Below, one piece after another: positions 10,704-63,154 of a stretch of 64,000 nucleotides of DNA. The stretch is taken from the NCBI RefSeq assembly GCF_964204645.1, contig NC_134028.1:12633263-12697262 (forward strand). Reading direction: 5' to 3'. Position 1 is the stretch's first letter, and every line of letters starts with the position of its first letter. A model generated the notes under the pieces. It was given only the letters and a program-made list of their open reading frames with translations. It made no database searches and was not told where the DNA came from. This DNA comes from Tubulanus polymorphus (lineage: Eukaryota > Animalia > Nemertea). Position numbers and translations under genes: made by a program.

Positions 10704-10705
10704 AG

Positions 10706-15805: not shown

Positions 15806-15808
15806 ATT

Positions 15809-23095: not shown

Positions 23096-23130
23096 ACGAG
23101 TAGTAGTGGGGGTACTATATAGACAAATAT

Positions 23131-40400: not shown

Positions 40401-40580
40401 ACATGAAATATGGAGCCTGTATCACACGATATACACATCTTGAATTTTCTCTAACTACGTAGGCCGTTTCCAAATGGGAATTGTTCAGTTTTTTAACGGC
40501 CGACATTCAGAGGCACCTAAAAAACCGGTTGTATAGCACTTGAGATTTACTGTGTAGGGCACATCTCACATCGACTCGGC

Positions 40581-41196: not shown

Positions 41197-44100
41197 GATA
41201 AAAGATATTATAATGAACATTTAAAATCTAAAAGTCATATTAGAAATATGAATAATGATATTTTAGGTGAAGATTATTTTGATAAAGATAATGATAAGAA
41301 ACAGAAGACAATTAAAAGCATAAAAAATAAATTAAACAATAAAAGACCATACATGGAAGATGTAAGAAATTATATTAATTCATTAGATAATAAAAAAGAT
41401 ATAGAGATAACCGAAGCATTTAAAAGTGATATTGGTCCAGCAGCTATCGAGTTTAAATTTCATAAAGGAAAAACATTAGAAGAAAATAAAAAACATTTAG
41501 AAAATATGAAAGATATTATAAAAATAATTACTGATGTTGAATATCCTAAAATAAGTATATCAGTTAAAGTAAAGTTTATAAAATCTGAAGATAAACCAAT
41601 ATATAATATAAATTCTCATTCACAACATATTATATCTAAACAACATATAGATGATAAATTAGATAAATGTTATAATGAAGTAAAAACTAAAATAGAAGAG
41701 AAATATTTTGAAGGATCTGGTTTAATATTTGATGAAATAATATTTATGACTACATGTTTATAACACAAAATATAATAAGTTAACTAAATCAAAACCAATT
41801 GATGAAAATAATGTATCATATTATAAAGAACCAGATATTGAAGCATTGAGTTATATTAAACTACCATTTAAAACTAATGCTGTTATAAATGTACAAAATG
41901 AAGATGATAAATGTTTTCTATGGGCTATAATAAGTTGTTTACATCCAACAGAAGATATTACACATAGTTGTAGATTAACTCATTATAAACCATTTGAAAA
42001 TAATTATAAGATAGATAAGTATCCTGTTATAATTAAAAACATCCCAAAAATAGAAAGAGATAATAATTTAAGAATAAATGTATTTGATTTAATCAAATTA
42101 CCAAATACAAAAGGTAACAATATAAAACATTATACATTAGAACCTTTATATCTATCAAAAAATTATGATTCAAACGATGTTATAAATATATTATATTATG
42201 AGAATCATTATATGTGGATTAAACAAATAGATTTATTCTTTAGAACAGAAAGTGATCACCATAATAAAATATATCTATGTAGAAAATGTTTACATAGATT
42301 CAGTAATGAAAGTACATTATTAAATCATAAACAATTATGTGAAAATCATGATTATTGTAAATTAGTTTTACCAAATGAAAAAGATAAAATATTAGAATTA
42401 AAAAAATATGATTACAAAAATAAAGTACCATTTGTTATATATGGAGATTTTGAATCATTAAATAAAGAATTAACTGATCAAGATAGAAAAGAAATATATT
42501 AAAAAAGAAAGAAATTAAATTCTAATGAAAATGATTTTTCAGATGAACCACCAAAAACAAATACTATTAAAAAGATTCATCAATCAGCTGCAGCTTTCGG
42601 GTTATATATTAAATCTGATTATCCAGAACTAATTGAAAGTGAATATTATGATTATAGAAATGAAAATGTTATCAATCATTTTTGTGACTTATTAATTGAA
42701 TATGAAATAAGGTTTAGTAAATTATTGAATACAAATATAGAAATTATAATGACAGAAGAAGATAAAGAAGAATTTGCGTTTGCAGATAAATGTTATTATT
42801 GTGAAAAGATATTTAATTATAAAGATAAAAAAGTAAGAGACCATGATGATTTGAATGGAAAGTTTAGAGGCGCCGCACATGAGAATTGTAACTTACAAGC
42901 TAAGAAAATTAATTTTGTACCAGTTATATTTCATAATCTATCAGGATAAGATGCACATTTATTTATCAAACAGTTATGCCATAAAATAGAAGAAATCAAT
43001 AATGAAATAAAAAGATTAAATTCAAATAGATCAAAAGATAAAATACCAACTTATAAATTTAGAATGTTAGCTAAAACATCTGAGAATTATATATCATTCC
43101 AATTTGGGTGTTTCAGATTTATAGATTCATATAGATTTTTAAATAGTTCATTAGATAACTTATCAAAATCATTAGTTGATGATGAATTAAAAATATTAAA
43201 GCAACACTACCCAAATAATGATGATTTTCAATTAATGAGATATAAAGGAGCAATTCCATATTCATTTTATAAATCACATAATGATTTTAACATAACTGAA
43301 TTATTAAAAGAACAATTCTATGATGAATTAAAAAATGAATATGTTAAAGATGAAGTATATAATAGAACATTGAATATTTGGAATCATTTCAAAATAGAAA
43401 ATCATGGACAATTAGTAGATTCATATCTAAAATCAGATGTATTATTATTAACCGATATATTCGAAAGGTTTAGAGATGTAAACCTAAAATATTTCAATAT
43501 TGATCCTTGTCATTGTTATTCAAGTCCAGGATTAACATGGGATTGTGGATTAAAATTTACAGATATAAAAATGGATTTGTTAACAAATATAGATCAATTA
43601 CTATTATTTGAAAAATCTATAAGAGGAGGAGTTTCAGGTGTATTAGGTGATAGATATTTCAATGTAAATGATAACCCTGGATACAAGTTATTATATATAG
43701 ATGCAAATAATTTGTATGGTTGGGCAATGATGGAACCACAACCTTATGGAGTATTTGAAATAAGTGAAGTTTTACAGAATGAAAATAATGACAAATTTGA
43801 TTGGAAGAAAAGAATTCTAGATATTGCAGATGATTCAGATACTGGTTACTTTTTTGTTGTAGATTTAGAATATCCTGAACATATTAGATTTAAATCTAGA
43901 AATCTAGCTTACTGTCCCGAACATAAAACTGTAACTCATGAAGAATTATCAAATTACCAAAAAAGAATTAAACCCGAAAATCATATTCATACAGAAAAGT
44001 TAATGGTAACTCAAGAAGATAAATATAATTATGTAGTACATTATAGAATGTTAAAGTTTTATCTAAAACAAGGAATGATCCTAAAAAAAGTACATAGATA

Positions 44101-45030
44101 TATTTCATTTAGTCAATCTAAGTGGTTAGAAAAATATATAGATTTAACACCAAACAGAGAACTGAAGCTAAAACTGATTTCGAAAAAGATTTCTTCAAGT
44201 TAATGAATAATGCATTCTATGGTAAGACTTGTGAAAATATTAGAAATAGAAATGATATTGAGTTAGTTAGTAATGGTAAAAGAATTAGACATTTACAAAC
44301 ATATCCTAAGTTCATTGGTAACAGAATATTTAATGAAAATTTAGCTGCTGTTAAAATGAGAAGAACATCAATGAAATTTAATAAACCAATCTATGTTGGC
44401 GCTTCAGTTCTAGAATTATCAAAATTACTAATGTATGAATTCTATTATAATGTATTACAACCACTTTTTGGAGAAAAACATATAGAAATATTATATTTTG
44501 ATACCGATTCTTACATATTAAAGATAAAAACTGATAACATAACTAATGATTTAAAAACATTAAAACATTTTGATTTTAGTAATTATCCTAAAGATCATGA
44601 ATTGTTTAGCAATGGTAATAAAAAAGTTCCCGGTAAATTCAAAGATGAATTAGGTGGTGAAGAAATGATTGAATTCATTGGTATTAGATCTAAAATGTAT
44701 TCATATAAAACTAAAGAACATGAATCTAAAAAGTTAAAAGGAATAACCAAAAATGTAGTAGAAAAGAATATTCATTTCAAAGATTACATCAATTGTATAT
44801 TCAATGAAGAAGTTAGAAAACATAAGATGAGATGTTTAAGATCTGAAGATCATGAAATGTTTATTGAAGAAATTGAAAAGATAAGTCTAAACCCATTTGA
44901 TGATAAAAGATATATTTTAGATGATGGAATTCATACAGTTGCTTATGGATGTAATTTAGATGAATACTTAAAATTTAAAAGAGAAGAAACAAAAGAGAAC
45001 GAGATAATGAAAAGAATTCTAACGTGTTAA
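40996..45030 (+). pseudogene. polB: Protein-primed family B DNA polymerase (frameshifts and stops)
   Basis: Pieces 40996-41763, 41846-42502, 42725-42949, 43064-44203 and 44122-45030; N-terminal C2H2 fingers; NVQNEDDKCFLW; Exo motifs YGDFES and FHNLSG*D; EndoVII-like CYYC..VRDH....G.FRGAAH..CN; Pol motifs YIDANNLYG, KLMNNAFYGK, YFDTDS. Confidence 0.95.
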
Positions 45031-45059
45031 TCAAATTTTAATAAAAATATGTATTATAA

Positions 45060-45401
45060 ATGGAGAGTAAACAAGCAAACAGTGAGAACAACAAATTAAT
45101 TCTAGATAGAATTAAAGATATCACAAATGTAAAATCTGTAGATTATAAATTCAAAAAGTTAACAGAATTAACAATTCATAAGAAATATCTAATTACAAAT
45201 ATTGATACAGTTACTAATAACTATGGAGATAAATTAGTTATACACTTAGAATATGAAGGATTAAAAGGAAATACGTATAAATTCAGAACATATTTACCGG
45301 ATAGATTTCATAGATTATCAAGCGAAGACTTAGAAGAATTATGTTCTGGAGATTTCTATTTCGTATACAAAGTAAGAATGAAAAAGGGCACCATGAAATA
45401 G
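45060..45401 (+). CDS. Polinton hypothetical protein (113 aa, possible OB-fold)
   Basis: Open ORF with TAAATG start; beta-strand pattern KY.IT.I..V...YG..LVI.L...YLP; the fold is my inference. Confidence 0.65.
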   Translation: MESKQANSENNKLILDRIKDITNVKSVDYKFKKLTELTIHKKYLITNIDTVTNNYGDKLVIHLEYEGLKGNTYKFRTYLPDRFHRLSSEDLEELCSGDFYFVYKVRMKKGTMK

Positions 45402-45429
45402 ATTTCGAATAAGAAAATATGTAAAATAA

Positions 45430-46188
45430 ATGGCGGAATTAAAAGAATACAGAATATTTGTTGATTCTAGAAGGCTTACAAATTATAAATCTCATAATTT
45501 ACTAGTACAATTAGATAGAGAATTTAAGATTTGTGTAGATTTAAAATTAGTTAATATAAGTTTATGTAATTCTTTTTATAATATATCGGATAAAACTATT
45601 GATCATAATGCTTTTATGATTCATATTAGAAATGTAAATAAATGGTTTCACCTAATTTTAAAACCAGGATTATATAATTTAGAAACACTAGCTCAAGAAA
45701 TTAATAGAAGAGCACGGTTGAAAATTAGAAGTGAAGATAAATTTTTAATTAGAATTATAAAAAGTGATAGCACAAATAAAATTAAAATAAAGGTATATGA
45801 TGAAAGTCAACATGCATTTATAGTGAGAAAACCTATAGCTAAACTGTTAGGAATTGTACCAGATACTGTTACAGGAAACGTAGATGGTAATTCAAATATA
45901 ATACCTTTTACACACTTTTATATTTATTGCAATTTAATCAAGCCTACAAAAACTTTCGAAGCAACTAAAGAAACAATTTGTAGTTCTAGTATACTAAATA
46001 TTTTACCGCTAAAAAATGTTAAACAATTTGGAACTCAAATAAATTATAATTTAACTGAATGTGATTTTAAACCTTGCATTCCTAAATTTAATAATTTTAA
46101 ATTAGAAATAAGAAATCATAATGGACATTTAATTGATTTGAATAACTTTCCTGTAATTTATGAATTAGTTATAAGATGTAGAGAGTAA
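45430..46188 (+). CDS. Minor capsid protein (penton)
   Basis: IFVDS, NSFYNI, PGLY, LLG, YIYCNL, SIL..LP, IR...G.LIDLN pattern typical of Polinton single jelly-roll pentons. Confidence 0.75.
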   Translation: MAELKEYRIFVDSRRLTNYKSHNLLVQLDREFKICVDLKLVNISLCNSFYNISDKTIDHNAFMIHIRNVNKWFHLILKPGLYNLETLAQEINRRARLKIRSEDKFLIRIIKSDSTNKIKIKVYDESQHAFIVRKPIAKLLGIVPDTVTGNVDGNSNIIPFTHFYIYCNLIKPTKTFEATKETICSSSILNILPLKNVKQFGTQINYNLTECDFKPCIPKFNNFKLEIRNHNGHLIDLNNFPVIYELVIRCRE

Positions 46189-46204
46189 TTTTTTCACTAT
46201 ATAA

Positions 46205-46561
46205 ATGAATATAACTGTTGGGCCGAGTATATGTTTTGGGTTTGATTTTAAACGTGAGAAAGAAATGAAATTTAACGTTAATGATGTAATTACACATATC
46301 AAAAATATTGCAATTTCTAATGAAACAACATTTGAGTATGAAACAACAATAGATAAAGAAACTTTTAATGTAGAAAAGATTACTAATTTAATTAGAGAAT
46401 CTTTAAGATTTTATGAATTAGATGAAGATTTTATCATCGATGATATTAAAAGAATAATAATTGAAATATATACAAATGAAACTAGTAATGAAATAAATGT
46501 TGAATTAATCATCACTAAGATAACTAAATATTTTGAAGATAGTAATTTTTTTGATAAATAA
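46205..46561 (+). CDS. Polinton hypothetical protein (118 aa, acidic)
   Basis: Open ORF with T-tract + TAAATG start. Confidence 0.65.
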   Translation: MNITVGPSICFGFDFKREKEMKFNVNDVITHIKNIAISNETTFEYETTIDKETFNVEKITNLIRESLRFYELDEDFIIDDIKRIIIEIYTNETSNEINVELIITKITKYFEDSNFFDK

Positions 46562-46783
46562 ATGAGTGATAATAAGTGGATAATAACTGGATTATATAAT
46601 GGAGCATTACTATCAGTTGGAACTGTTGGTTATTCAATGGTATTAAAAAAAGTATTTAAAATGGGAAGTGTCAATGTTGATAGATTTGATATAAATGATA
46701 TTTTAAAATTAACATTAGCAGTTACTTTATCTAATTTAACTATTGATTATTTAGAAAAACAAAAATATATTCCTCCCATATAA
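46562..46783 (+). CDS. Small hydrophobic protein (73 aa)
   Basis: Open ORF; two hydrophobic/amphipathic helices; TAAATG start. Confidence 0.7.
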   Translation: MSDNKWIITGLYNGALLSVGTVGYSMVLKKVFKMGSVNVDRFDINDILKLTLAVTLSNLTIDYLEKQKYIPPI

Positions 46784-46807
46784 ATGCATAATTATTTTAC
46801 TAAATAA

Positions 46808-47230
46808 ATGGCTTCTGCAATTATAACTACTATAGGATCGGCAATTGTTAACGCTTTAGCATTTACTGGTGGCGGTTATTTATTTAAGCATATTGATAAA
46901 AATAGTTCATTAGGAGAACAAAGAAGACATAACTTAGCATTAGAGAAATATAATAAAGCAGCAGAAGAATATAGAGAAAAAAGGCAAAACTATATGGATT
47001 ATATTAACAAGGAATTATATGATCAGAAGATTTCACATAGAGATTTTCAATCAGTTGATGATGCAATGAGTTTATATAACGCAGTAACCAATAAAGAAAA
47101 ATTACATCTATACAAACCTAAATTATCAGATTATTATACTCCAAGTAATGAACAGAAGAAATATGAAATAATATGGATTTTAGGTGGAACAGTTATTGTT
47201 ATATTTGTTGCTTATAAGTTTACTAATTAG
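46808..47230 (+). CDS. Membrane-anchored protein (140 aa)
   Basis: Hydrophobic N-terminus, coiled middle, C-terminal TM IIWILGGTVIVIFVAY. Confidence 0.75.
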   Translation: MASAIITTIGSAIVNALAFTGGGYLFKHIDKNSSLGEQRRHNLALEKYNKAAEEYREKRQNYMDYINKELYDQKISHRDFQSVDDAMSLYNAVTNKEKLHLYKPKLSDYYTPSNEQKKYEIIWILGGTVIVIFVAYKFTN

Positions 47231-47250
47231 TAATTTTTTTTGCTAAATAA

Positions 47251-47649
47251 ATGGAAGATAAAGTTGATAATATTGATATTATTCCTCATGATATAAATAA
47301 AACCAAATTAAAAACATATTTAGAAAAACAAATATTAGAATTTGAAAGTGACTTAAAGATAAAAAAGAAAAAATATTTAAAAAGTAAAATTATATATTAT
47401 CTTATTATTAGTGGTTCGGTTACAATTAGTTCTGTAATACCATTTCTAGCAATATTCAGTCCATTAACACCTTTAGCTATATCAATTGGCGTATTAGGAT
47501 TAAGTTCAAGTGTATTAACTGGTATAAGTTCAAAATTAAATATAAAAAGTAATAAAGAAAAAATTATAACTAATATAAAAGAAATTAATAAATTAAAGAA
47601 TACACTAACTAGATTATATAATAAGTTTAAATGGTCATATAACAGTTGA
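47251..47649 (+). CDS. Two-TM protein (132+ aa, probable C-terminal frameshift)
   Basis: Two hydrophobic segments flanked by basic coiled regions. Confidence 0.7.
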   Translation: MEDKVDNIDIIPHDINKTKLKTYLEKQILEFESDLKIKKKKYLKSKIIYYLIISGSVTISSVIPFLAIFSPLTPLAISIGVLGLSSSVLTGISSKLNIKSNKEKIITNIKEINKLKNTLTRLYNKFKWSYNS

Positions 47650-47705
47650 AGAACAAGATAAATTACTAAAAGAATTAATGAATTATTAATTTTTTAACTA
47701 TATAA

Positions 47706-49059
47706 ATGGCAGATAGTTTTCCAAAAGCTTTCCAATATGATAAATCAATTAAATATAATATTCCAGCAATAGATTTTAATAAAGATATTACATATAGAAA
47801 TGAAGTTTTAAATTCATTAATTGATTTATATATTTATGTTACTGAAAGTAATAATTTTCATGTAAAGATGGAAAATATATTTCATGTGTATACAATTAAT
47901 TTCAAAAATTTAAATGAGGCAAAACAATGGTTATTAAAATCTAATATGAAGTATTGGCAGAACCAATTAAATTTTGCTGTTTATTGCGCAACAACAGGAT
48001 GTGGAATTAGTTGGAATGATCATTTAAACAAACCAAGTTTACCATTGATGTTATCACTTTTTAGATTTCATACATATTTTCAAACAAAATTAATATTAGA
48101 TGAATTAGAATGTCCTTTATCAGGTTCAAAATATTTTAAAGAATTGAATAATAATATTAATTTTTCTAAGTTTTATAAAATATGTAATGAATTTAATATT
48201 AATTCAAATAAAGATTTTAGAGCAAAAATTGGAACAATGGGTGGATTAGGAATATTATATACTAAAGAGTTTGGAAAAATAATGACAAATTCAGATATAA
48301 GAACACTAAATTGGAATGAATTACCAAAATATTATAATAATATACAACAACAAAACAATAATGGTTGGGTTAATTTCATTTTAGAAAATAGTGAAGGTTT
48401 TACTAACGCTGGAATACAAAGAATAAATCAATCTATTAGAACTTATTTAATTTGTATTTTAGGTGCGCAAGTTGAAACAAGATCCCCAATAATTGGAAAT
48501 GATAACACTTCATTCGATGCGCAGAAACAATTCAAAGTATTATTCGAAGATTCAATTCATAATGATAAAAATAGATCGATTCCGGAAAACATTGTAAGAT
48601 ATCAAAATTATTTAGATAAATCACATATTAGACTAAATTATTGTATAGGCCCTAATCTATTTATTATTTCTAATGATTTAGTATTAAAGATGGGAAACAT
48701 AATTGGTTATAATAATCTAATTAAAACTGCAACAATCAATAATTCATTTGGATTAAATGATATAAATAAAAAGATTATCACTGCTCCAAAATTAATGGAA
48801 GGTGAAAAAAATAAAAAAACACATTCAATCAACTGAAACTAAAACTAATAATATTAAATTAAATAATGATTCTAAAATAAAAGATTACAATACATCAGAA
48901 AATATAAAAACTGATAATGGTGCCGTATGCCACCCACACGGTGATATTCAACATGATATAATTAAACTAAATGATGATAATAAATCCCATGAAAATACTA
49001 AATTAGCTATAACTTGTATAGGAATTGTAATCGGAGGAATATTATATTTTAAATTTTAA
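47706..49059 (+). CDS. Polinton protein of unknown function with C-terminal TM (frameshift near 48810)
   Basis: 376-aa ORF (WQNQLNFAVYCATTGCG, ILGAQ) continued by 48802-49059, which ends in LAITCIGIVIGGILYF. Confidence 0.7.
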
Positions 49060-49677
49060 TTTTTTATTATGTAAATGGCAGAAGGTGGAGAAGATTATAA
49101 AATGGAAGGCATGGGAAATAATAATGAAGGATATATTGATGATGATTATAATGATGCAGAAACTAATATTGATAATGATGATGAATCAGCATATAATTCT
49201 AATTTAGCAGATTGTGGTTCTAAAGGCCAATCAACAGATGAATTTGATAGAAGAACTAGATCGAGAATACCTCCTGAAAATGAAAATCCAGATTTAGTAA
49301 AACAAAATTTAGAATATAATGAATATATTTATAATTTCAAACCTATATTTGAAAAATCTGGATATAATATAAATGCCAGAGGCGCTAGACTTTTAGTACA
49401 AGAATTAAAATCTTTAGATGGTGAATATTATTATCATTTGAAAGATGATTATAATATTGATATCTCTTATAAAAAACATAGAAAAAATATTAGCAGAATC
49501 AACTTTGCTTAAGTTAGACCTATCTAGAATTAAAAGAATAAGAAATAGTAATGAACCAGAAGATGTAACACAAAAAGAAATTATTAAAAATGAAAGAGTA
49601 TTTAAACAAAGAATTAATAAATTATTTGAAACAATCGATAATAATTTAGAAACAGAAACAACTTCTGAACAGAATAT

Positions 49678-50333
49678 GGCATTCCTTTACTTTCGCACCG
49701 CACTATGTTCCACTCTGTCTACGTCCTTCAAACTTGTGTCACTGGTGTATTTTTGTATGAGGAATCTTATGGTGAAGTCCGTTTTTTAATATCTCCAACA
49801 GAAAATAAAATTCGCTTTTTTTTCACAGGTGATGGTCATCTCGTCAGCAATTATTTTTTGGTTGTGTTAAAAAGTCGTAATAGGATCAATTCATTTCAAT
49901 TGATTTTATTGATACAGAAAAGTATGAAAAATATTTCAAGTATTCAACATCTAACAAATAATGTTTGTAAATGTGTAACGTTGTTCATAAAATCCTAAGA
50001 ATAAATTTACAATTTTCCATAAATAGGTTGTTTTTCTTTTTGATATGGGAAAGTCACACGGGCGGCTACTGGGATCCTGGGCATCTCTGTCGGTAGTTAG
50101 TAAGACCGGAGGCCATAGTCCGACTTTTACTGATTCCCAACATGGCGACCATTTGCAGCACGTAAAAACTGGAGGAAGAAAATTTTATAAAAAAGCGAAT
50201 TTTATTTTCTGTTGAGAGATATTAAAAAACGGACTTCACCATAAGATTCCCCATACAAAAATACACCAGTGACATAAGTTTGAAGGACGTAGACAGAGTG
50301 GAACATAGTGCGGTGCGAAAGTAAAGGAATGCC
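49678..50333. mobile_element. MITE with ~140-bp TIRs and 8-bp TSD (Merlin/MULE-like)
   Basis: GGCATTCCTTTACTTTCGCACC... TIRs; TSD CAGAATAT at 49670-49677 and 50334-50341. Confidence 0.9.
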
Positions 50334-50413
50334 CAGAATATAACTTCCAAAACTAGTAAACTTAAATCAAATAAAGTTCCAATTGAAAAACTTTTACCAA
50401 ATGGATTACTTGA

Positions 50414-52790
50414 CGGTTCCTGAACTTCGCTGAAAAAGCTGAAACACTGAAAAGCTGAAACGCTGAAATAAAAACGCTGAAATTTCAGGGAATTTCCGAA
50501 AAACGCCGAAATTTCAGGGAATTCCCGAAAAACGCTGAAATCGTGCTAGGTACATACAATACACGTTTTGAAATTTTTTCCGGGCCGGTGTCCGCTGATG
50601 AGTCCTGAACCGTGTTTTATGCTCTACCTTCGGTTACAGAGACATGCCTTAAGGTCGTCGTCATGATCGACTTGATCGATTGCGGATTGCGTGGATTGTT
50701 AGATGTGTTTTTTGCCATAGTTTTATGTGCATATACCGGTACGATCTAACAATGAAGTTATCACTTCATTTGAATAAATTCTTAATCACAGTAATATTAA
50801 TTCACAATATTTTTTCTTATGTTTGGTGATTTCTTGCAACTTATCATTACCAAGTCTCATACAAGTAGTAGCTGAATGAAAGTACAGTTAGGCTGAACCT
50901 GATAACCCAAATTAAGTGCTAGCATGGAACTAATGATTATTTTGATTCTATTTTCGGTGTCATTGAAATTCGTTAAGAAAGGTTCAACCGTCATAGTATA
51001 CTGTACTTAGCATTGCTACAATTGGGTGCCATATTTCTACAATTTCTACAAGGAGGAAGGAATCTTTAAGTGTCTTTGTTCCCGGGTAGGGTACGGGGTA
51101 AAACCTGGTTCACTTTCTCTTTCGACTTGCCGGAGACTACTATCTGCAATGTATTGCATGCTTTGATGTGTCTGGCCTATAGGAGTCGAACAATATTTTT
51201 TTCCCATACACAGGCTTGGCTTTAGTGTAGATGAAGGCTAGGCACTGCACATTGTGGATTGACTGGAACTCTTAACTCACAAAATTAAACGAGTCAACAA
51301 GAAAGATCCAATAATTGGACATTTGTCTAACTATATTATTTAACAGCTTGAAATAAAACATAACACATTCTGCAAGAGTATACAAAGGAAATCAGTTCTT
51401 ACATTATATCAGAATCAATAGTTCGCTTAACTCTGGCTAGAATTCTGGTTCCATTGCTTCATATTCTAATGAAATCCACTAGTATACCTTAGAATATCGC
51501 TTAGCTTAAGACTAAAAATTTGGTACCAGGAAACAGGGAAGAAAAGTGGGTGTACTGTACATCCGCAATTGACTTATTTCTCTCAGGTTGAATCAAGTTA
51601 TTATTGAAATAGCATTCGAATAGCCATTTTATTTTTAAAAATTGTGTCGTTCAGCTATCCTGCTGCAAATTTCGCAGTTGAAGTTTACTGGTGCCATCTG
51701 ATTTCTCAGTATCTCAAAAAATTTGCACATTCTAAGCCTGAATCTAAAAATAGAAAAAGGTGCATTTTAGTCGGATATAAAAGAATAGTGGCTAATGCAC
51801 CCTGGACTATATAGCCTATGGGGTGGGCCTAGTTTGAAAGCACTGAGGTCCGAGAGAACAGCACTTAGTAAATAAATACTGAAATTAAACTTACAAAACA
51901 CCCAGTACTTGAGATGATGTACTTGACAAGAAGTGTCACCAGCTAAGCAAATCAACTTTGTCTATGACTCCTCCTTTTATAGATTCAGTAGTAGTCTAAA
52001 AATAAGAATCGGTACATTTTTCTAACAGTTGGTATGTCATTTCTTCAAAAAAACTAATTATTATCACGCCACAGCAAACAAATTATTCACAGTTGTTGAA
52101 TGGTTAGCCCGATTTAGATTAATTGGTTGACGCTAATCAGTATGACCCATACGTAGGGGCCTACTGCATGCCATTGGCGTCAATCCATTCCATTCCATTC
52201 CACAGTGAATTAAAAAGAAATTTAGTTAGATCCCTTTTGTCCAAAAGCTGCATCATTTATATAACTAGCCGTCAAATTTAATTTACCTCCTTCAGAGAAT
52301 ACCATAGTGACATAGTCCGTCGCCCATCAACGTGTTGACAAAAGAAAAGTTGCTGCATGTTTTATACATGAACGTTCAAATAAGATATTTTGCGTCTTGC
52401 AGGGAATATTGAGCATAGTGTTTAAGTTGGCTTGCACGGTTTGTGAATGGTTTTTCCTCATTATGCTGCCTGTATGCATTAAAAATCCGGATTTCAAGCG
52501 AATTAATTTGTCCAACAAGTGGCCCTCTAGAAGTATACTCCACACATACTGTCCATGCATGTCTCTGTAACCGAAGGTAGAGACTAAAACACGGTTCAGG
52601 ACTCGGCAGCGGACACCGGCCCGGAAAATATTTCAAAACGTGTATTGTTGGTACCTAGCACGATTTCAGCGTTTTTCGGGAATTCCCTGAAATTTCGGCG
52701 TTTTTCGGAAATTCCCTGAAATTTCAGCGTTTTTATTTCAGCGTTTCAGCGTTTCAGTGATTCAGCTTTTTCAGCGAAGTTCAGGAACCG
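50414..52790. mobile_element. Non-autonomous MULE-like element with ~200-bp TIRs and 9-bp TSD
   Basis: CGGTTCCTGAACTTCGCTGAAAAAGCTG... TIRs with repeated GCTGAAA; TSD ATTACTTGA at 50405-50413 and 52791-52799. Confidence 0.9.
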
Positions 52791-53604
52791 ATTACTTGAT
52801 GCAACAGATCAACAATTAGAAGATTTAAATAATATACTTTCTGATAAAGCAATTAGAGAAATTATTAGTATAAGAAATGAAGCTGATAAAATTGCGCATG
52901 ATAAAAGTATAAGAGATTTAAAAATTAGAACTTCAGAAGATGAATTATTTAAATCAAGAAAAGAATCGGAACAACTAAAATTAGATAGAGATAGAGATAA
53001 TAAAGTTATTGAAGAAATTGAATTTAAAAAAGAAATGCGTATTTAGAAAAAGAAAAAGATGATTTAGAATATAACATAGAATAACAAAAAGAAGAAATTA
53101 AATTATTGTTAAAATCATATGATTATAATATTAATAGATTAAAAGTTATTTTTAAAGATTTGTTGATAAAACCAGATTCTAAAATATCATTAAAAGATAG
53201 AATAAAATTGTTATTTGAATTAGAAGGAATAACAATTCTTTCAATTCTAACAGCTGTAACTATGTTATTTACAACAATTGGTTTAGCAATATCAAATGCT
53301 TTAAAATCTACACCTACTCCCGATAAACCGGATAAACCCCCGAATGATAATAATTCTATACAAGATAAAGTTAAGGATGGTTTAAAGAAATTAGCAAAAT
53401 ATTTATGGGAACTATCAAAAAATCTGCTGCAGCTTTACCAGGAATTATTGCATCAATTGTTGGTTTTATATTGAAATCTGCTGGGAATATTCTTAACTTT
53501 GCTGCTGGACATATTATTTTATTTTTAATTACAGTTGTAAGTGCAATTATTTTTGGGCTAGTTAACATGATAAAAAATAAATAATTAATTTTTTTGTTAA
53601 ATAA

Positions 53605-54853
53605 ATGAGTGGGAGTTATATCAATCCTTCTAAGAATCATAGAATATCTAATGCTATTAAAGCAGAAAGATCACATCATATAATTACTCATAACCCTTCT
53701 AATATTAATCCTGATGAAACTTTATATGTTAGAATCCCTCGATTAACACAAAATACTTTTTATGTTCCAAATAGTATTTATTTATCAGCCGATATAAAAG
53801 TAACCGGTAATAATAATAATTATGTTGTTGATAATGTTGGAAGATATTTGATTAAAAAAATTAACAATAAAGATTGGTCCGGAAACTGTTTTCTCATTAG
53901 ATGATTATAATTTATTTATGCATTATAAAGATTTATGGTTAACTAAAGAAAATAGAAATAATATGATATTTCAAGGAATCCAATCAGAAAACCAAAATAA
54001 ATTAAGATCAGAAGCACATAATGCAATATTAACTAATGCTGTAGATAAATTGATAAAAAGTATATATGGAAGCAAATATAAAATTCCATTAGACTTTGAA
54101 TTGATAAATAACAATGCGCCTTTATATAAATACGCAATTCAAGAAGACGTTATATTCGAAATAACATTTGCTCCTGTAAATGAAATTGTTATATCTAGCG
54201 TTAATAAAGATATGAGTTATAAATTATCGAATATATGTTTAGAATATGATACAGTAACTGATGAAAATATTGCTAACACAATTCAAACTCAATACAATCA
54301 AGGATTTTCATTATTATATGATTATATTGATAAATTTAAAACTGTAACTATTAATGCAAATGATGAAATTATTAATGAGAATATTAACTTCCCAAGAAGA
54401 TCTATTAAAGGTATATTAATATTTTTTACCATTGCAACATATACTAATGGCGCAATAAATGTTGATAATTATTATAATCCTGAAATAACAAAAGTAGAAA
54501 TAACTATCGAAGGAATAGCAAATAAAATATTTTGTCAAGGAATGAGAATGATTGATCAGTGGCCAGAAATTAGAAAACATTTTATGAATGAAAAAGTGAA
54601 ATCATCTGAAAATTGTAATATTAATCAAATTGATTATTATACCGGTAATAAATATGCATTATGGTTAGATTTTAGAACAACAGAAGATAATTCATTACAT
54701 GGTTCTGGAAAAAAACTCCAGAACACTAAAGATGGAATACAATTATTCATGACAAAGAATAAAGGAATCAAAAATTTTAAAATGCACATTTATATTATAT
54801 CTGACGCGCAATTAAATATTGTAAATTCTCAATTAAATAGTGTTATGTATTAA
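53605..54853 (+). pseudogene. Major capsid protein (double jelly-roll), one frameshift near 53860
   Basis: NPS.I...E.LYVR.P.L, NVGR, YKDLWL, IPLDFE, NICLEYD, PRRSIKGIL, NP.ITKVE.T.EG, LWLDFR, LHGSG; size and position fit a Polinton MCP (recognised from memory, not searched). Confidence 0.75.
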
Positions 54854-54885
54854 AATTTTAACTTTAATAAAAATATATATAATAA

Positions 54886-55740
54886 ATGGAAGGAGGTAAA
54901 GTATATAAACATATTCCATACATTGATACACATGAAAATAATGATGGTTTATATTATGTAATACCTTGTAATATAGCTTTGATATTTGATCCTATTTTCA
55001 AAATTTATAAAACTAAACTAATAGAAATCGATAATAATAAAAGTGGTGTTGTTGATAATTTAAGTAATGTAATTGATAATGATGTAATACCTTCTACATC
55101 TAATAATGTAATACCTACTACATCTAATAATGTAATACCTACTACATCTAATAATGTAATACCTTCTTCGTCTAATAATGTAATACCTTCTACATCTAAT
55201 AATGTAATACCTACTACATCTAATAATGAAATAATATTAAATGTTAGTGAAAATAGAAATTATTGTGGATATTGTAAAAGTGAATTTTCAAACGCTACAT
55301 CAAATTGGAATAAACATATGAATACAAGGGTACATACAAATAATGTTATAGAACGTGTTGGTTTAAAAGAAATTATAGAACACCCATTTAGATATGTTAC
55401 AAAGTTTGTTTCAAATCAAAAAGTAAATGGTGAAAAAATATATGAAGATTTATTATTAGCAACACCTAATAAAGATGAATTAGATATAACCGATGCTAAT
55501 GAAATATTAGGATCAAACACTGTAAATGAAATATTAGGAGCAAACACTAATAAAGATTCTATGAAACATAAAGTAGAAAATAATGATAAATTTGATTGGA
55601 TGAATAAGCATAACAATGAAACAACTATTGATGATTCGGTAAAAAGGATGAAAAAGTATAAAAATAATAAAGAATTTGAAGAAGAAAATTCGGTAGAGAA
55701 TTTGAATAAATTGTTAGGGTCTGATAGTGAAAGTGATTAA
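54886..55740 (+). CDS. Hypothetical protein with six VIP(S/T)(T/S)SNN repeats and a C2H2 finger
   Basis: 284-aa ORF; 24-bp tandem repeat at ~55084-55227; CGYC...H.....H. Confidence 0.7.
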   Translation: MEGGKVYKHIPYIDTHENNDGLYYVIPCNIALIFDPIFKIYKTKLIEIDNNKSGVVDNLSNVIDNDVIPSTSNNVIPTTSNNVIPTTSNNVIPSSSNNVIPSTSNNVIPTTSNNEIILNVSENRNYCGYCKSEFSNATSNWNKHMNTRVHTNNVIERVGLKEIIEHPFRYVTKFVSNQKVNGEKIYEDLLLATPNKDELDITDANEILGSNTVNEILGANTNKDSMKHKVENNDKFDWMNKHNNETTIDDSVKRMKKYKNNKEFEEENSVENLNKLLGSDSESD

Positions 55741-56113
55741 GATATTAATTATATTTAACTCAAAAAGTAATAAAGGTTGAAAATTATATAAAATAATAGT
55801 AAATAAAAAAAGGGGGTTTTAAGTTTTTAAGGTATTTAAGGTATCTAATACATATCTAATACATATCTAATACAATCTAATACATAAAATATCTTATTTT
55901 ATAATCTGATATTCATATGGAAATTGAAACCTCAGTAATAATAAATAACCTTTATTATTTTCAAACTTATTCATATATAAGTTGAAAAAATAAAAATGAA
56001 TTGGTTGAAAATTGTATTAATAATATTTATTTTAAAAAAGGGGGTTTTAAGTATTTAAGGTATCTAATAGGGTATCAGGTATTAGGGCATCTAATACATA
56101 GGTACACAAATAG

Positions 56114-56718
56114 TTATTTTATAAATTTATATTCATAGGGAAATTGTAATCTCAGTAATAATTTTGAACCTTTATTATTCTTTAATTTATTCATCATGTA
56201 ATTCAGTGGGTATAATTTGATTTTCTTTCAATGATTGTTGCATAGATTTTCTATCTTTGTTATAAAATAAAACTAGAAATCTTATATTCTCCCTAAAGTC
56301 TTTAACAATTGAATTATGTTTTTGATTTAAAACCCATGTTGTTATCCCAAAATGTCTCCCAGAGAAAGCTAGATAACATAACTCACTTTCTCTAACTTTA
56401 CCTTTCATGTAAATTAGCGCAATCATCTATAATGAATAATGTATTTGATCCGTTATAAGTATCAATTGCTATTTTTATACAATTATATAAATTTTCTTTT
56501 ACTGTTTTAGGATTTAATATAATAAACTTTTTTATCTTAACTATATCTCTATTATATGTTTTATTCATTTCATAAGTAGGACAAAATAATATTATGTTAT
56601 CAAAATGATTCTTATAAATAGTTTCTAACAAATCTAATATGAAATGTGCTTTACCACAATTGGTTACTCCAGTTATTAACATATTATGCGGTTCGAATAT
56701 GAATAAATCTTTATTCAT
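56114..56718 (-). pseudogene. A32/FtsK-like DNA packaging ATPase (frameshifted)
   Basis: Walker A GVTNCGK, Walker B LFIIDD, GRHFGIT..VLNQ motif. Confidence 0.9.
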
Positions 56719-57814
56719 TTATTCTTTTAATTTTACTAGATAAAATCCATTCATTAAATTTATCATCATATCCTTTATATTTCACCAAAGAATACTTTTT
56801 TCCTTTAAGAGTTTGTTTTCAATACTTTTTCTATTTTGTATTCTATTTAATCTAGATTTGGTACAAGTGATAATTCTTGTTCATAGAAATAACCTAATAT
56901 TTCTTCATCTTTTAAATCTTCTAATGGTTTAGTTAATATTATCTTTTTAATCTTGAATATTTCTTCTGTAAAATTAGGGGTATAACCTTTATAAAAGGTT
57001 TTTCTATATTTAGATATTATTACGTGTTGTCCAATTTTGAATTTAGGTTCACCGAAATCATGTGTAACAAACGCTCCATATAAATTATTCCAAACTATTT
57101 CTGAATTATCTTTTCTAGCTTGTATAGGTTTCATATTTATAGAACTATGTTTAGAATTATTATAACCTTTCACTAAATCATCTAACACATCGATATATTT
57201 ATATGTTTCATTAGCAGTAAAATATTTCCACATTCTAGTTTTCAATGTTTTATAAAATCTTTCTATAATAGATGCTTTTTTATCTGAATGTGTTGAAAAA
57301 AATATTCTACATCGCTATCAGATAATAGTTTTTTAAAATGTTTGTTATAAAATTCCTTACCTTCATCAAATTGTATCTTATCTGGAATAGCTTCTTTAAA
57401 TATTGATTTAAAAGCATTTGTAACTTCTATTCCAGTTTTATTTTTGATTGGAATTGACCATGCGTATCTACTGAATATGTCTATAACATTCAGTATCCAG
57501 AAATATCCTTTGTTGTATTCCTCTAAGTTCTTCATGTCAATTAAATCTGCTTGCCATTGTTGATCGATATATGAAACCATAACTTTTCTTGTTAAATAAG
57601 TTTTATCCATTTTCTTGTGGATTTGATATGTTGGTTGATTTTGTAACCATGATTTCAATTCACTATATTTTATACCACCATGTGGGTGCCATACGGCACC
57701 ATTACCATTTTCATTATCAGATTTAATTTTATCCCTTAATTCTGAAACACTAGAATATGATACTTCACTCTCTGGGTTATAATATAAATCTCTTAAATAT
57801 TGTTCTTTTTTCAT
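56711..57814 (-). pseudogene. Retroviral-like (rve) integrase with C-terminal chromodomain (frameshifted)
   Basis: QWQADLIDM, IDIFSRYAW, IQFDEGKEF, YNNSKHSSI.M.P, FYKGY.PNFTEEIF, LVKYKGYDDKFNEW. Confidence 0.93.
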
Positions 57815-57820
57815 CTTATT

Positions 57821-58180
57821 TTAATCCATTAATAATAATCTTGGTTTATTTTCAATGACTTTATCATTTGACTTATTTTCTGGTATGATAGGTTTATTGT
57901 CATTGGAATCATATTTATCATCAGATTTGAATTTTGATTTATATATTACACTGGATAATATAATAACTGTTACTAATCCAATTGTAATATATAATGTATA
58001 ATTACTTCCAGCATTAGAAGAATTAGATGGATTATTATTTGAATCAATACCAGGTGATTCATTTATATCAGTTAATTTCTTTTTCTTAGCTTTTTTTAAT
58101 TCTGAAGATCTTTTACCTAATTCTCTTGCCCATTTAATTTGTTTTTCAGATCTAACCATTTTCTTTACGCTATCACTCAT
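57821..58180 (-). CDS. Single-TM protein (119 aa)
   Basis: Basic N-terminus; TM YTLYITIGLVTVIILSSVIY; TAAATG start. Confidence 0.7.
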   Translation of the reverse strand: MSDSVKKMVRSEKQIKWARELGKRSSELKKAKKKKLTDINESPGIDSNNNPSNSSNAGSNYTLYITIGLVTVIILSSVIYKSKFKSDDKYDSNDNKPIIPENKSNDKVIENKPRLLLMD

Positions 58181-58775
58181 TTATTTTAGTTAATTTTTGT
58201 TCTGATTCATTTTCCGTTTCGACGTTTGGTTGTAGTACATCTGTTTCGTTCTTACCTGATTTATATTCCATAGGCTTGATATTCGAAAATGTAATGACGC
58301 CAGTAGAAATTAATGTCATAACCGATCCTAATTGAAATGAAGCATAACCAACCCATTTTTGTAATTCAGTCATAACTAAATAGTCATTTTTCAAATCACT
58401 ATATAATTTATTTTCATCATCAATTGGTATTAACTGGTTACGTAACTTAGAATAACATTTGACAATACCATCTGAAATAGAATCATTTATTCTAGCTTAT
58501 CTAGCTTCTTCATAAATCTTAAAATATTTTATTACTTTATCGGGTTTCATAGTATCTAGTTCTTGATAAGTTAAAATTTTTCCTAAGAAATCCTTAGATT
58601 TCCCGCCAGCAATTAATAATTGAAGATGATGCTTACAATATAAATAGTATTCATAATCAATATTGTTATTAACTTTAATAGAATTAGAAACAACTGTATC
58701 TTTATTATCGCTTATACCCAAATCATCTAATGTTTTTTCAATATCAATACTATTCTTATTAGATTTCTTTGACAT
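58173..58775 (-). pseudogene. Polinton hypothetical protein, split (58497-58775 and 58173-58394)
   Basis: Two adjacent same-strand ORFs with a single TAAATG start; hydrophobic segment in the C-terminal part. Confidence 0.55.
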
Positions 58776-59019
58776 TTATATTAGAGAAAAAAGCGAAAAA
58801 AAATATAAGTATTATAAAATGATACCAGTATCTCTTTAGATTAATACTGGCTTAGTTAAAGGTAAAGAATTTTAGTATTAGTTATTGTTTTTTTAGTATT
58901 TTTTATTTGTGATATAAAGTATTCTCTTTTGAAAAGAAAGTATTAAAAAAACAATAACTAATACTAGCTAGTTGAAGATATGTAATTTTTAATATATTTT
59001 ATTTGAGATATATTAATCT

Positions 59020-59697
59020 TTAACCACTCAATAAAGATTCAACATATTGTTCATTATTTGGATTATTGTTCCATAATTCAATGAATTTCTTTACTTTCGT
59101 TAACTGTTCTAAATATAACTGTAAATCTAGTTTGTCATGTTTAATCATATTTTCCTTCTTTTCAAGAGGTCTCAGGTTTTTCCAATTCCAAATTAACTTT
59201 TTATCATATTCATCATTCATGTCAAATTTAGATATTGGTAACACATGATCAATATGAAAATAATTGCCATAATTATTTATATTCATTTTATCATCGAATT
59301 GATATATTATCCATGATTTAAAAAATTTATCTGAACAATCCAATAAATGTGCTAGTGTAACTGAGTGGTTTTCTTTACTGAATAATTTTGATACTTTAGA
59401 TCTCAAACATTGTTTCAATTTAAAATTAAAATCTGTATGATATTTTTCATTATGATAATTTCTATTATACACTTTAATATGTTCTAAATGATTTTCTTTC
59501 CATTTCTTATTTTTATCATTGCGCGATTCAGTATTATTTCTATAATTTTGTTTGTCACTTAGTTTACTACAAGTTTTACAATAACTTTGCTTACCATCTT
59601 TCTGAGTTTTATAATTATAATATTCCGAGAGTTGTTTATTTATTTTACATTTAGAACATTTCTTATTGTTTATATTTATAGTTTGTGTACTTTCCAT
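59020..59697 (-). CDS. HNH-type endonuclease with N-terminal Cys4 finger (giant-virus/phage type)
   Basis: KKCSKC...KDG..SYCKTC; HIDHVLPIS.FD, WKNLRPL...EN..K.DK. Confidence 0.8.
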   Translation of the reverse strand: MESTQTININNKKCSKCKINKQLSEYYNYKTQKDGKQSYCKTCSKLSDKQNYRNNTESRNDKNKKWKENHLEHIKVYNRNYHNEKYHTDFNFKLKQCLRSKVSKLFSKENHSVTLAHLLDCSDKFFKSWIIYQFDDKMNINNYGNYFHIDHVLPISKFDMNDEYDKKLIWNWKNLRPLEKKENMIKHDKLDLQLYLEQLTKVKKFIELWNNNPNNEQYVESLLSG

Positions 59698-59808
59698 TTA
59701 TAATATATATTTTTATTAAAAATTGATTAACATTTTAAAATCCTGTTCATTATTTCCTTTTCTTTCTCTTCTTCTCTTTTAAGTTTTAAGTATTCATCTA
59801 AATTGGTT

Positions 59809-60430
59809 ACTGAATGATTGATTACATGTATCACATTTGTATATTTCTTTTTCATTCTTTAATTCATCTAATTTAGTTTCTAATATATCATCTTTATATT
59901 CTAGTTTCAATTTATTCTCTAAATGTGTTTTAGTTTTATTGTGTCTTGCTTTTTGGGATTTATCTATATTGATATTACATGTTGGACAGTAGTACTTATT
60001 TGCTTCCATTTTAATATCAAATTTTTTTTTTAAATTGATTTTAGAAGTTCAATGATTTATATCATGTAGTATTTCAATCACACTTTACTAACACTTTTAA
60101 TGTTTAAAAATCTAACTCATACAAATATGAGTATTGAAATAATGTTGTAAATATATCTATATATCTATTCTATAAGAGCTTACACTTTTATATTGAATAA
60201 TCTGTCAATTTAAATGTTATTCATGTATATGAATATTTTAAGAGTAATAGGGATAATAGGCTTTCATATCAAAGGTTGAAGGGGCGAGTGAGTAAAAAAT
60301 GAAAATAATAATAATTTACAGTTGAATTAAGAGTGTGCGCGACTAATTCAACTGTAAATTATTATTATTTTCATTTTTTACTCACTCGACCTTTCGACCT
60401 TTGGTATGAAAGCCTATTATCCCTATTACT
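59809..60430. repeat. Polinton right TIR (terminal hairpin 60243-60430)
   Basis: Reverse complement of 40581-41196; contains the duplicated polB N-terminus ORF 59794-60009. Confidence 0.93.
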
Positions 60431-63154
60431 CTCGGCTCGCGGTCGGTGGTTTAATGGGAACACATCTGGTTGTTACTAGTTTAACAGTTGACGAATTCAG
60501 AAAACTTTTTTCAAATGTCTTTGATAACTTTTTAAACATAGTATTCTTCTTAATTACATTTCGCTGATTCCATAGATATTTTTTCATGAAAATTGCTCCA
60601 GTTATAACGGATTTAAACACATGTAAAATGATTATTTTCAAAATATTCAATTTTATCCGATTTTGAAGAAATTCTGAAACAATATCATCTCCACTCGACA
60701 CATGATTTTACTTCGGCGCCTTTGAAGGGAGTGTCACTTGTTGTTGGTTCATATTTAGTCAAACAAGAAGATATGCCTGATTCCTTTTTAGAATTTAGAT
60801 TTCGACGGATATCATCAAATTACTAGAAAGGGACAGCAGCTTTCGGTCATCCGCAAAAAAAATACCTAAAATGCTTTCCTAGGGTTACGGAAAAACATGT
60901 CACGAAACATACGGAAAATCCTTTGTTTGGTAGACTGAAATTATTGAACTCTTAAATAGCAACATTCAGCGAAACAAAAACATAAGAATATATTCTCGCC
61001 CACCCTTTAAAAAAACAACGTGATTTCAATTGAAGATGACACGTAGCCTCATATCAAATGATATGAACGCAACAGAGCCTATTCATTCTCTTTACGAGGA
61101 TGGGTCTCCACATTCATAGGATACGATACGAGATTCGTGGGTACGAATGATGAATACAACTGATAAAGCGCCAATTTCACTGATTCTTGCACATAAAGGT
61201 GTTTTAGAGTAATCTAGTTAACAGGTGTGTTTTAGGAGTATTTTGAATTTAAATTGAAATCGGGGTTCATGACGAATATTGAGCATTCTAGGGCTGGAGC
61301 AAGAAACGTGTGGGATCGTCCGCCCAAGAAATAATAAGGAGCCAGTCCGTGGTGGCTATTGAAAGCGACGACCGCATGTGAATGCATTGATTGAATGACA
61401 TCTCAAAAGTCAGATTATATAAAATTGAACATGATATATGGATAGGTTATTCCATACGTCTGGTAAAAACGATGCCCAATATGTGATATGAATGTTCAAT
61501 TAAAAAGTAGAAACCGAATCCATGATTCAGTCTGGTATTGTTATAACATCAACCACTCAAATTTAATCCTTTGTTAGATTGGTAGCCAGTGTAGATTAGC
61601 AAGAATAGTGGTCCCTAATTTTAATGTGGACTGTTCAACAAGTTGGAGTTTGTGTAGAGATGAATGAGTTTAAAATGGAGTGGACTTTAGATAATACTGT
61701 TTGAATGTCTATTACTCAATCTTTTTATTGATCATAAAAAATTGTGGTAAAATATTTGACTCTACGGTTGGTTTTAGATTGTATCTCTCCACGCCAGAGG
61801 TAATCACGGATATTGGACTACACAAAATTCCTTGTGTACAGCTCAACTTATTAAATCCCTGGAAAAGCTCGCCACGGATATATCTCAGTAATGATTAATT
61901 TTCCCACAAATTCTCCCCTTCGAAAAACCTAAACAACCAATGTACGCTTGCTCTAAGTTTGCCAATGCACTATTGTTACCTTTTCTAGCTATTTGCACTA
62001 GCTGTTTGCCGCAAATAGATTGCTTCCTCTATTACAGGAGTAAAGGATGATACAGCTCTGTGACCCGTTTCTCAAAAGATAGTTTAAATTAGACTTACAG
62101 CTTTCTCTATTGGTTAGCGTTGTGATCACTCAAAATTAACCATAAGTTTGAATTCTCACTGATCTACTACATCTCTATAACAAAAATATATTTCATATCA
62201 GGCAATTAGCTTTGATCTGTGGACAGCAGCTACGAAACATTTAAAACTACTACATTATCATTCCATCTATTCATGTATATATAATATGATATGATATCTT
62301 CTTTGTTCAGTTTAAAAGTCTTGATCGTAAAAGTTTGACAAGTCTCGCATGTTGGTACCGATACGCACGTTCACGCGAGTGAAATGTGCACGTTACAGGC
62401 TCAAATGCGCACGTTACAATTACAAATGGAAACGTTGTTCGTTCAAAACCCTACGTAAAAATCTTATGCATTTTAGCGGAATTTCAAAGTTAGCTCGCTA
62501 CCTACAACAAAAATCGGACAAGACTTTTTCAAGCGACACATTTAAATGTAAGAGCTAGTAGTACCAACGAAGGATTCACTAAACATATAAATTACTTATG
62601 GGGGTTCTGGTTAGCACTGGTAACTGGTCTGTAATGGTCAAGCATTGGTCAGTTAAACAATTTTTAGATTAATTCCCACATCCTATCTAGTTATTTGACA
62701 CCAAACAACTTAATTGTTTGCAAACAAATAATTTACTATATGGTCAGTACTGGTCATGCATTGGTCAGTTAAAAGACCATGGTCCACGCCACATTCGATA
62801 CCAAACATGATTGGATTGTGTCGTTTCGAAAATGTATCTGTTGGGCAATTAGTGGTCAGCCCTGGTTCGTTAGGTTCTTATTTTGCGGGCATTTTATCTC
62901 GAACCACCGAAAGACCGAATCACTAATTAATTCACCAGATCGTTAATTGCTGAAAATGAAGATTAGTGTTTAACTAATAGTCCTTGTCTGAACAAAATGT
63001 CTCTGGTATGGGTCCTATGGAATCATGTCCTTAACTGTACACCGTACTGTATCTTTGTACTGTATCTTTTTATGTTCACTACTACCGTAATTGACTATGA
63101 TGTTTTCAAGTGGTCTTAAGTACCGCTAATAGCCGAAAGTCGTTGATTTATGTT

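Follow-up and report, generated by a model that had tools for sequence, protein, structure and literature searches.

Start codons fused to a candidate poxvirus-type late promoter in a Polinton of the nemertean Tubulanus polymorphus

Introduction

Polintons or Mavericks (Polintoviricetes; adintoviruses, Starrett et al., PMC8502044) carry a protein-primed DNA polymerase B (polB), an rve integrase, an A32 packaging ATPase and a double-jelly-roll major capsid protein (MCP), are bounded by terminal inverted repeats (TIRs) with a 6-bp target duplication, and are multicopy in eukaryotic genomes. It is an open question by what machinery the Polintons of animals are transcribed, and if they live as autonomous viruses or parasitize larger ones. 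We have analyzed a stretch of 64,000 nucleotides from Tubulanus polymorphus (NCBI RefSeq assembly GCF_964204645.1, contig NC_134028.1, positions 12,633,263 to 12,697,262, forward strand), hereafter called the window, which contains a Polinton with all these features and with TAAATG at nearly all of its gene starts. This element differs from the adintoviruses by its saturation with TAAATG promoters, by an MCP without close match to named adintoviruses in BFVD and by the adenain protease, which was not detected here; the words 'promoter' and 'helper' do not occur in the available part of PMC8502044.

Mavirus and the endogenous mavirus-like elements (PMC8547959) resemble this Polinton in their polB, rve integrase, capsid and nuclear integration, and also in having one conserved motif upstream of genes, read as the late promoter of the helper. 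According to the same source, mavirus-type elements share the late promoter of Cafeteria roenbergensis virus (CroV). Mavirus lives in a flagellate as a virophage of CroV, its motif is TCTA and its helper is proven, whereas the Polinton has TAAATG and its helper is only inferred. Entomopoxvirus occlusion bodies contain Polinton-like viruses, which have been proposed as hyperparasites of poxviruses (Barth et al. 2024, PMC11296320). These viruses differ from the element studied here in their physical association with a poxvirus, in a protease of the adenovirus type, and in lacking any integrase or having a tyrosine recombinase instead; the available part of that report contains no promoter or transcription analysis. 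The word 'promoter' is also absent from the part at hand of a 2026 preprint (10.64898/2026.10.13.758929). No description of TAAATG promoters in Polintons was found in the literature searched, which covered few subscription papers. The cytoplasmic virus-like elements pGKL1 and pGKL2 of yeast have, in contrast to the Polinton, their own RNA polymerase and an early-type upstream element, and they lack capsid and integrase. Common to both systems are linearity and a TAAAN initiator, at which slippage produces 5' poly(A) leaders in pGKL (PMC6211774).

Results

The TAAATG signal in the window element

Comparison with relatives defines 16 genes in the element. Fourteen of them start with exactly TAAATG, the exceptions being polB (ATG at 40996, TAAAATG) and the integrase (57814, TAAGATG), and all start positions listed by an earlier note on this DNA read as it described. 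Among the other ATGs of the element core, TAAATG is found at 43 of 683 (Fisher p=1.2e-14). Two of the 14 starts, 46562 and 56718, are stop-start cases; when they are set aside, 12 of 14 starts are still TAAATG (binomial p=3e-13). Together with the T at -3, these counts bear out the view that TAAATG here is more than a Kozak context, base composition or stop-start coupling. A run of at least five T precedes 8 of the 14 start TAAATGs and none of the 43 non-start ones (p=2e-6). The A-tract form, a pattern written after the starts had been seen, occurs at 4/14 starts and 0/43 non-starts, and its independent cases number three, since the promoters of 59697 and 45060 are inverted duplicates of each other.

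The starts themselves were checked by tblastn with open reading frames (ORFs) of relatives, polB being left out. Most gene starts are supported, with alignments at or near the N-terminus; 45060 and 59697 aligned internally only. A TATA-like word stands 20-40 nt upstream of one of the 16 starts. Two other candidate signals were rejected: depletion of the early terminator TTTTTNT is not clear on sense strands compared with codon shuffles (for polB, 2 versus 4.7), and the baculovirus-type DTAAG lies next to the start for the integrase only, where relatives have TAAATG or a near variant.

The signal in related Polintons

With an MCP alignment, 25 metagenome loci were retrieved (handles L001-L025) and 17 were scored after removal of the near-duplicates L002, L012 and L014 and of L021-L025, which are fragments with no usable starts. 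Also left out were an integrase fragment of L003 (first ATG internal, no TAA), the 5568 ORF of L001 (TAAATG) and the L016 ATPase (context as in L015, no TAA). The starts of relatives were picked from ORF lists whose contexts had already been seen. The loci fall into near and far groups, a post hoc split that tracks MCP identity to the intact homolog P0001 (53-84% and 36-49%, respectively).

In the 12 near loci, 50 of 55 starts are TAAATG against 75 of 1880 background ATGs, whereas the far loci have it at 1/15 starts. The motif is kept despite gene-order shuffling and shifts in GC content among near loci, including L005-L007, where GC is 36-44% and 9/11 starts are TAAATG. When the 50 near-locus starts are joined with the 14 of the window, a T is found 9 nt before TAAAT at 61 of 64 motif starts (14/14 in the window) but at only 40 of 118 non-start TAAATGs (p=2e-17); p-values of this kind overstate the evidence because orthologous starts are not independent. 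An A at -1 (55/64) and an A at -15 (49/64) are also enriched. In L008, L009, L011, L013 and L014, genes that diverge from a spacer of 24-30 bp have TAAATG on either strand (five pairs, four of them distinct), and the divergent pairs of far loci are 37-63 bp apart. The MCP tree separates the motif-bearing loci by a single label change, but its support is weak (77/98) and its branches are long. The signal, fused to the start codon, is conserved, clade-specific and locked in its spacing. New here is the fixed T 9 nt before TAAAT, at a position near that of the conserved T in vaccinia late promoters.

Two observations concern more distant relatives. The 37-bp divergent spacer of L018 (1837-1875) has AAAAATG on both strands in place of TAAATG, possibly a variant initiator. 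A distant MCP homolog comes from a bivalve.

Comparison with poxvirus promoters

In vaccinia late promoters, the start codon is part of TAAAT(G) and the 10th nucleotide upstream is a conserved T; intermediate promoters do not have this T, and their A/T-rich stretch lies 15-19 nt upstream (PMC11980589). The core lies ~6 nt before the initiator in late and ~11 nt in intermediate promoters (PMC12722222), and the polymerase of the virus itself reads TAAA, which occupies -1 to +3 (PMC12917281). Many genes of salmon gill poxvirus are marked by TAAAT(G) as well (PMC4542343). With the first A as +1, as numbered in PMC12917281, the conserved T of the Polinton is at -10. Between the end of its T-tract and TAAAT lie ~6-8 nt, in agreement with published late cores (PMC12722222, PMC5294985). 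The Polinton signal thus shares with the vaccinia late promoter TAAATG fused to the start codon, the T-rich tract at this distance and a single conserved T about one helical turn upstream. It differs in belonging to an integrating element with no detected RNA polymerase gene, in its extended initiator WAWATAAATG, and in covering nearly all genes and not one temporal class. By this comparison the motif geometry fits the poxvirus late promoter.

The earlier note had assigned the T-tract contexts to late and the A-tract contexts to intermediate promoters. The late-type geometry stands; the intermediate label is unsupported because A-tract starts carry the late-type T and their A-tract is too close to the start. 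The T is present at 35/35 T-tract starts and 26/29 A-tract (non-structural-class) starts, including all four of the window, and the A-tract ends at about -11, nearer to the start than the intermediate core (-26 to -13 in G8R). Because both classes carry this T, we read them as what is probably one late-type promoter with a variable A/T tract and not as two temporal classes. Sputnik and mavirus use late promoters (bioRxiv 2022.07.28.501842; PMC8547959). By analogy, a single class would fit a parasite that has no packaged transcription machinery and is limited to the post-replicative machinery of its helper.

Genes and boundaries of the element

The features are as follows, the promoters being predicted.
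40575..40580, no strand: left 6-bp target-site duplication (CTCGGC), with 656 empty-site reads
40581..41196, + strand: left TIR, begins AG, contains the polB start at 40996
40581..40762, no strand: imperfect palindrome of ~180 nt, predicted hairpin, repeated at the right end
40996..45030, + strand: protein-primed polB with N-terminal zinc fingers (PF03175, E=2e-9), several stops and frame changes
45042..45401, + strand: A-tract promoter, TAAATG (ATG 45060), 113-aa ORF, function unassigned, homolog in L003
45412..46188, + strand: A-tract promoter, TAAATG (ATG 45430), 252-aa ORF
46187..46561, + strand: T-tract promoter, TAAATG (ATG 46205), 118-aa ORF
46544..46783, + strand: T-tract promoter, TAAATG (ATG 46562), 73-aa hydrophobic ORF; the TAA doubles as the 46205 stop
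46790..47230, + strand: T-tract promoter, TAAATG (ATG 46808), 140-aa ORF with hydrophobic ends
47233..47690, + strand: T-tract promoter, TAAATG (ATG 47251), SLATT-like gene with two transmembrane segments, frameshift near the 3' end
47688..49050, + strand: T-tract promoter, TAAATG (ATG 47706), gene of a conserved ~440-aa protein, frameshift near the 3' end
49057..53584, + strand: T-tract promoter, TAAATG (ATG 49075), gene of a ~485-aa protein with hydrophobic C-terminus, split by two insertions and frameshifts
49678..50333, no strand: nested non-autonomous TIR element, 8-bp target duplication
50414..52790, no strand: nested TIR transposon, 234-bp TIRs, 9-bp target duplication, GC 0.38
53587..54853, + strand: T-tract promoter, TAAATG (ATG 53605), double-jelly-roll MCP gene, frameshift in the first third
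54868..55740, + strand: A-tract promoter, TAAATG (ATG 54886), zinc-finger gene, 24-bp repeat
56110..56736, - strand: A32-like packaging ATPase (ATG 56718; PF04665, E=7.5e-6), frameshifted
56719..57814, - strand: rve integrase with C-terminal chromodomain, start TAAGATG (57814; PF00665, E=1.5e-9), frameshifted
57821..58198, - strand: TAAATG (ATG 58180), 119-aa ORF with one hydrophobic segment
58173..58793, - strand: T-tract promoter, TAAATG (ATG 58775), ~200-aa gene with an internal stop
59020..59715, - strand: A-tract promoter, TAAATG (ATG 59697), 225-aa ORF, HNH-endonuclease-like by eye
59663..59804, - strand: inverted duplicate (82%) of the polB 3' end, 45060 promoter and first codons, now heading the 59697 ORF
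59809..60430, - strand: right TIR, ends CT, with a truncated polB-start copy at 60009
60431..60436, no strand: right 6-bp target-site duplication (CTCGGC)

The Polinton runs from 40581 to 60430, with ends AG...CT, TIRs of ~620 bp each and the 6-bp duplication CTCGGC on both flanks, so the earlier note was right about its nature and drew its range (45030..59720) too short. In a public whole-genome shotgun (WGS) run with the same species label (X5), 656 empty-site reads run from 40580 directly into right-flank sequence; the boundaries are confirmed because these reads join both flanks. The target site of the insertion is itself a repeat. Of 48,748 WGS reads aligned to 40000-49000, 1,335 are at least 99% identical and 37,935 are 90-99% identical; therefore the Polinton family is multicopy and diverged. 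As the earlier note had it, the genes are more AT-rich than the flanks (core GC 0.234 versus 0.391 and 0.346).

Eight genes or gene remnants are broken, namely polB, MCP, integrase, ATPase, 47251, 47706, 49075 (with both nested TIR elements inside it) and 58775, and capsid, polymerase and integrase cannot, for this reason, be made intact from the window copy. The intact MCP homolog P0001, 77% identical, gives a model of predicted local distance difference test score 86.9 with a double jelly roll that matches MCPs of nucleocytoplasmic large DNA viruses and virophages (E down to 5e-17). Foldseek ranks iridovirus and Paramecium bursaria chlorella virus 1 capsids above those of mavirus and Sputnik for this model, a ranking that does not classify. 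The placement of the MCP in the T-tract class holds; for the 'membrane/virion-like genes' put there beside it, the MCP fold is the only one confirmed. The 45430 ORF is possibly the single-jelly-roll minor capsid protein expected of a Polinton, its match to Parvo_coat being weak (E=0.15). Orthologs of 46562 in L003, L006 and L007 retain TAAATG without an abutting gene, and in the window the TAA of the ATPase start at 56718 is the integrase stop. The integrase chromodomain is detected in the L001 and L003 homologs. For 47251, the L003 homolog matches SLATT models at E=4e-5 and E=0.0013, both below the model cut-offs.

The 47706 protein has 1321 homologs. A confident model of its 442-aa homolog (L003:2996-4321) had no BFVD match at E<=0.001, no PDB profile match and no Atlas match, and its best VIA Z was 4.1; in the homologs His122 and Glu162 are invariant, and similarity to a papain-like fold is at noise level (Z<3). 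For the 485-aa protein (49075), 277 relatives are known, all unnamed, and it gave no Atlas match; the 59697 ORF has no Pfam match. An adenain-type protease was not found by Pfam or NCBIfam in the proteins of the element or its relatives, several genes being unassigned. Pfam searches of 22 window ORFs and of two sets of 26 and 25 proteins, mostly from relatives, gave no match to an RNA polymerase subunit, TBP or TFIIB. A hit to Rap94, considered as a poxvirus polymerase subunit, was rejected: it is weak (E=0.019), misses the cut-off and lies in a distant locus without the motif. MCP and ATPase relatives were found neither in IMG/VR nor in GTDB or a phage collection. L003 also encodes a deoxynucleoside kinase (10340-10981, - strand; PF01712) behind a T-tract TAAATG promoter, and none of the 22 homologs of this kinase has a viral name.

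The palindromes at the two ends (40581-40762, 60241-60430) mean that the terminal sequence is present twice per end; folded as DNA, 40582-40762 gives -58.3 kcal/mol (z=-17). They contain AAAAAATGAAAA on both strands, which is like a poxvirus early core, and host reads are highly variable there. The right arm (59663-60430) repeats the left arm (TIR, polB start, polB end and promoter) in inverted orientation and with internal sequence deleted. That this promoter now stands ahead of a different ORF means, judging by the duplicated sequence, that an already existing promoter has captured a gene. Where the two gene blocks converge, 55775-56194 holds two imperfect direct repeats with ~220-bp spacing, possibly a termination or origin region.

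Elsewhere in the window, 9627-16700 is a long terminal repeat (LTR) retrotransposon with gag, pol and an extra zinc-finger ORF; its pol appears nearly intact and its LTRs are marked by a segment repeated at ~8481 and ~16425. A long tandem minisatellite array occupies 23087-24889, and four related TIR-bounded miniature elements with alternating orientations cluster at 33585-36555. LTR- and GIY-YIG-type retroelement ORFs were read by eye in the flank.

Search for a helper

IMG/VR was scanned with the full promoter pattern, which gave 54 loci; the eight richest in TAAATG, on inspection, had the appearance of non-pox giant viruses, and no poxvirus was recognised among them. A second scan for back-to-back promoters gave 57 loci with two true divergent pairs, TAAATG at 43/420 other starts and no candidate helper. 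Three loci picked by one motif match, whose ORF was excluded from the counts, are rich in TAAATG: G001 (9/22 starts) and G002 (8/21), against a 2-4% background and with MCPs that both match a grouper iridovirus capsid best, and the unclassified giant-virus contig L079 (7/10, with the T at -9 in 6/7). For an unselected set, 73 loci were taken by capsid homology; the MCP ORF was located in 71 of them, of which 31 remained after deduplication at 90% identity. These iridovirus-like loci have TAAATG at 107/435 starts against 600/16441 background ATGs. At their MCP genes it is found in 2/30, the distance from initiator to ATG varies between 0 and 6 nt, and the T at -9 is present in 56% of the 107. 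TAAATG alone does not name a poxvirus, because iridovirus-like loci are also enriched in it. The ~90% saturation and the 95% fixed T of the Polinton nonetheless fit the poxvirus description better than these loci do. A TCTTG-N-ATATAA word recurs before the MCP gene in the iridovirus-like and unclassified giant viruses (L079, L080-L083, L085-L157); it is a candidate late promoter for which no description was found.

Discussion

Taken together, the signal makes it rather likely that the helper is a cytoplasmic large DNA virus of some kind and that the Polinton family is virophage-like. The more specific explanation that we favour, tentatively and at a little under an even call, is that the window holds a decayed Polinton copy, that T-N8-TAAATG is a poxvirus-type late promoter, and that intact members are transcribed by a co-infecting pox-like virus. 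The cytoplasmic RNA polymerase of that virus would initiate at the first A of TAAAT, and its slippage would add a 5' poly(A) leader and remove the -3 T from the mRNA. Replication, capsid and integration genes would then form one post-replicative expression class during co-infection. The protein-primed polB would copy the element in a helper-dependent manner, the DNA would be packaged in the element's own capsid and reintegrated by its integrase, and integration would amount to latency. The earlier proposal of a pox-like helper thus survives in its late-promoter fit and loses its specificity for poxviruses. The protection of the host that the earlier note had added goes too far: no sign of such an effect turned up, and the copy in the window is defective. 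Several points weigh against the pox-like explanation. Neither of the two IMG/VR promoter-pattern scans yielded a recognisable helper among the inspected loci, profile searches found no poxvirus-derived gene in the element or its relatives, and TAAATG is favoured in the iridovirus-like loci too. Known poxvirus hosts are insects and vertebrates (PMC12447285), the match at -10 depends on the counting in PMC11980589 and is possibly off by one, and polB and integrase of the window copy are without the exact motif. A nuclear provirus would also need some way to come into contact with a cytoplasmic polymerase.

A virophage-like element might instead be read by another large DNA virus, most plausibly iridovirus-like (Pimascovirales), with a late polymerase starting at ATAA/TAAAT by the ATG. 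The starts of G001, G002, L079 and the unselected loci speak for this, as does the fact that iridoviruses infect invertebrates (PMC5294985); furthermore, polB is preceded by AAAATTTGA, which is like the delayed-early AAAAT motif of invertebrate iridescent virus 6 (PMC5294985) and the mimiviral AAAATTGA, a single instance and as such a weak point. We hold such a helper to be unlikely in view of the near absence of TAAATG from iridovirus-like MCP genes, the floating initiator and the T at -9, far less constant there than in the motif-bearing Polintons. Transcription in the nucleus by host RNA polymerase II (Pol II), possibly with factors of sister Polintons, appears somewhat less likely still. 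The motif would then have converged on TAAATG as a core promoter or initiator specific to the lineage. In keeping with this, the element integrates, its integrase has a chromodomain and the host species has many copies of it; the AATAAA in the A-tract class could even serve the gene upstream (polB, MCP) as its poly(A) signal. Against this, a T at -3 is a poor Kozak context, the 24-30 bp divergent spacers are too short for ordinary leaders, and an AG acceptor for trans-splicing is missing within 15 nt at 14/16 starts. The distant integrating relatives are without the motif, and the Pfam searches returned neither TBP nor TFIIB. Finally, a translational or compositional origin (stop-start coupling, insulation of the start codon by an in-frame stop, or chance in an element of 77% AT) seems very improbable. 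Three of the 64 motif starts are true stop-start junctions (46562 and 56718 of the window, and the L003 ATPase), whereas at the other 61 no gene terminates in the TAA, TAG and TGA are no substitutes at starts, and the motif is kept at the higher GC of L005-L007. The fixed T at -9 and the A at -1 and -15 would also be left unexplained.

If the helper is confirmed, the pox-like explanation would describe a new form of endogenous virophage, and mavirus-like endogenous virophages would reach from protists to animals. The 30-bp clade-specific signal with its fixed spacing provides a sequence criterion to tell helper-dependent from nuclear Polinton lineages, and it would predict that these hosts harbour a pox-like or iridovirus-like virus not yet seen. 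It is also conceivable, though doubtful, that the whole invertebrate Polinton clade consists of endogenous virophages of an undiscovered aquatic poxvirus lineage, silent until late machinery reads their 30-bp promoters and then replicating at the helper's expense. In that case, the promoters of the clade would record poxviruses in animal groups that have no known ones.

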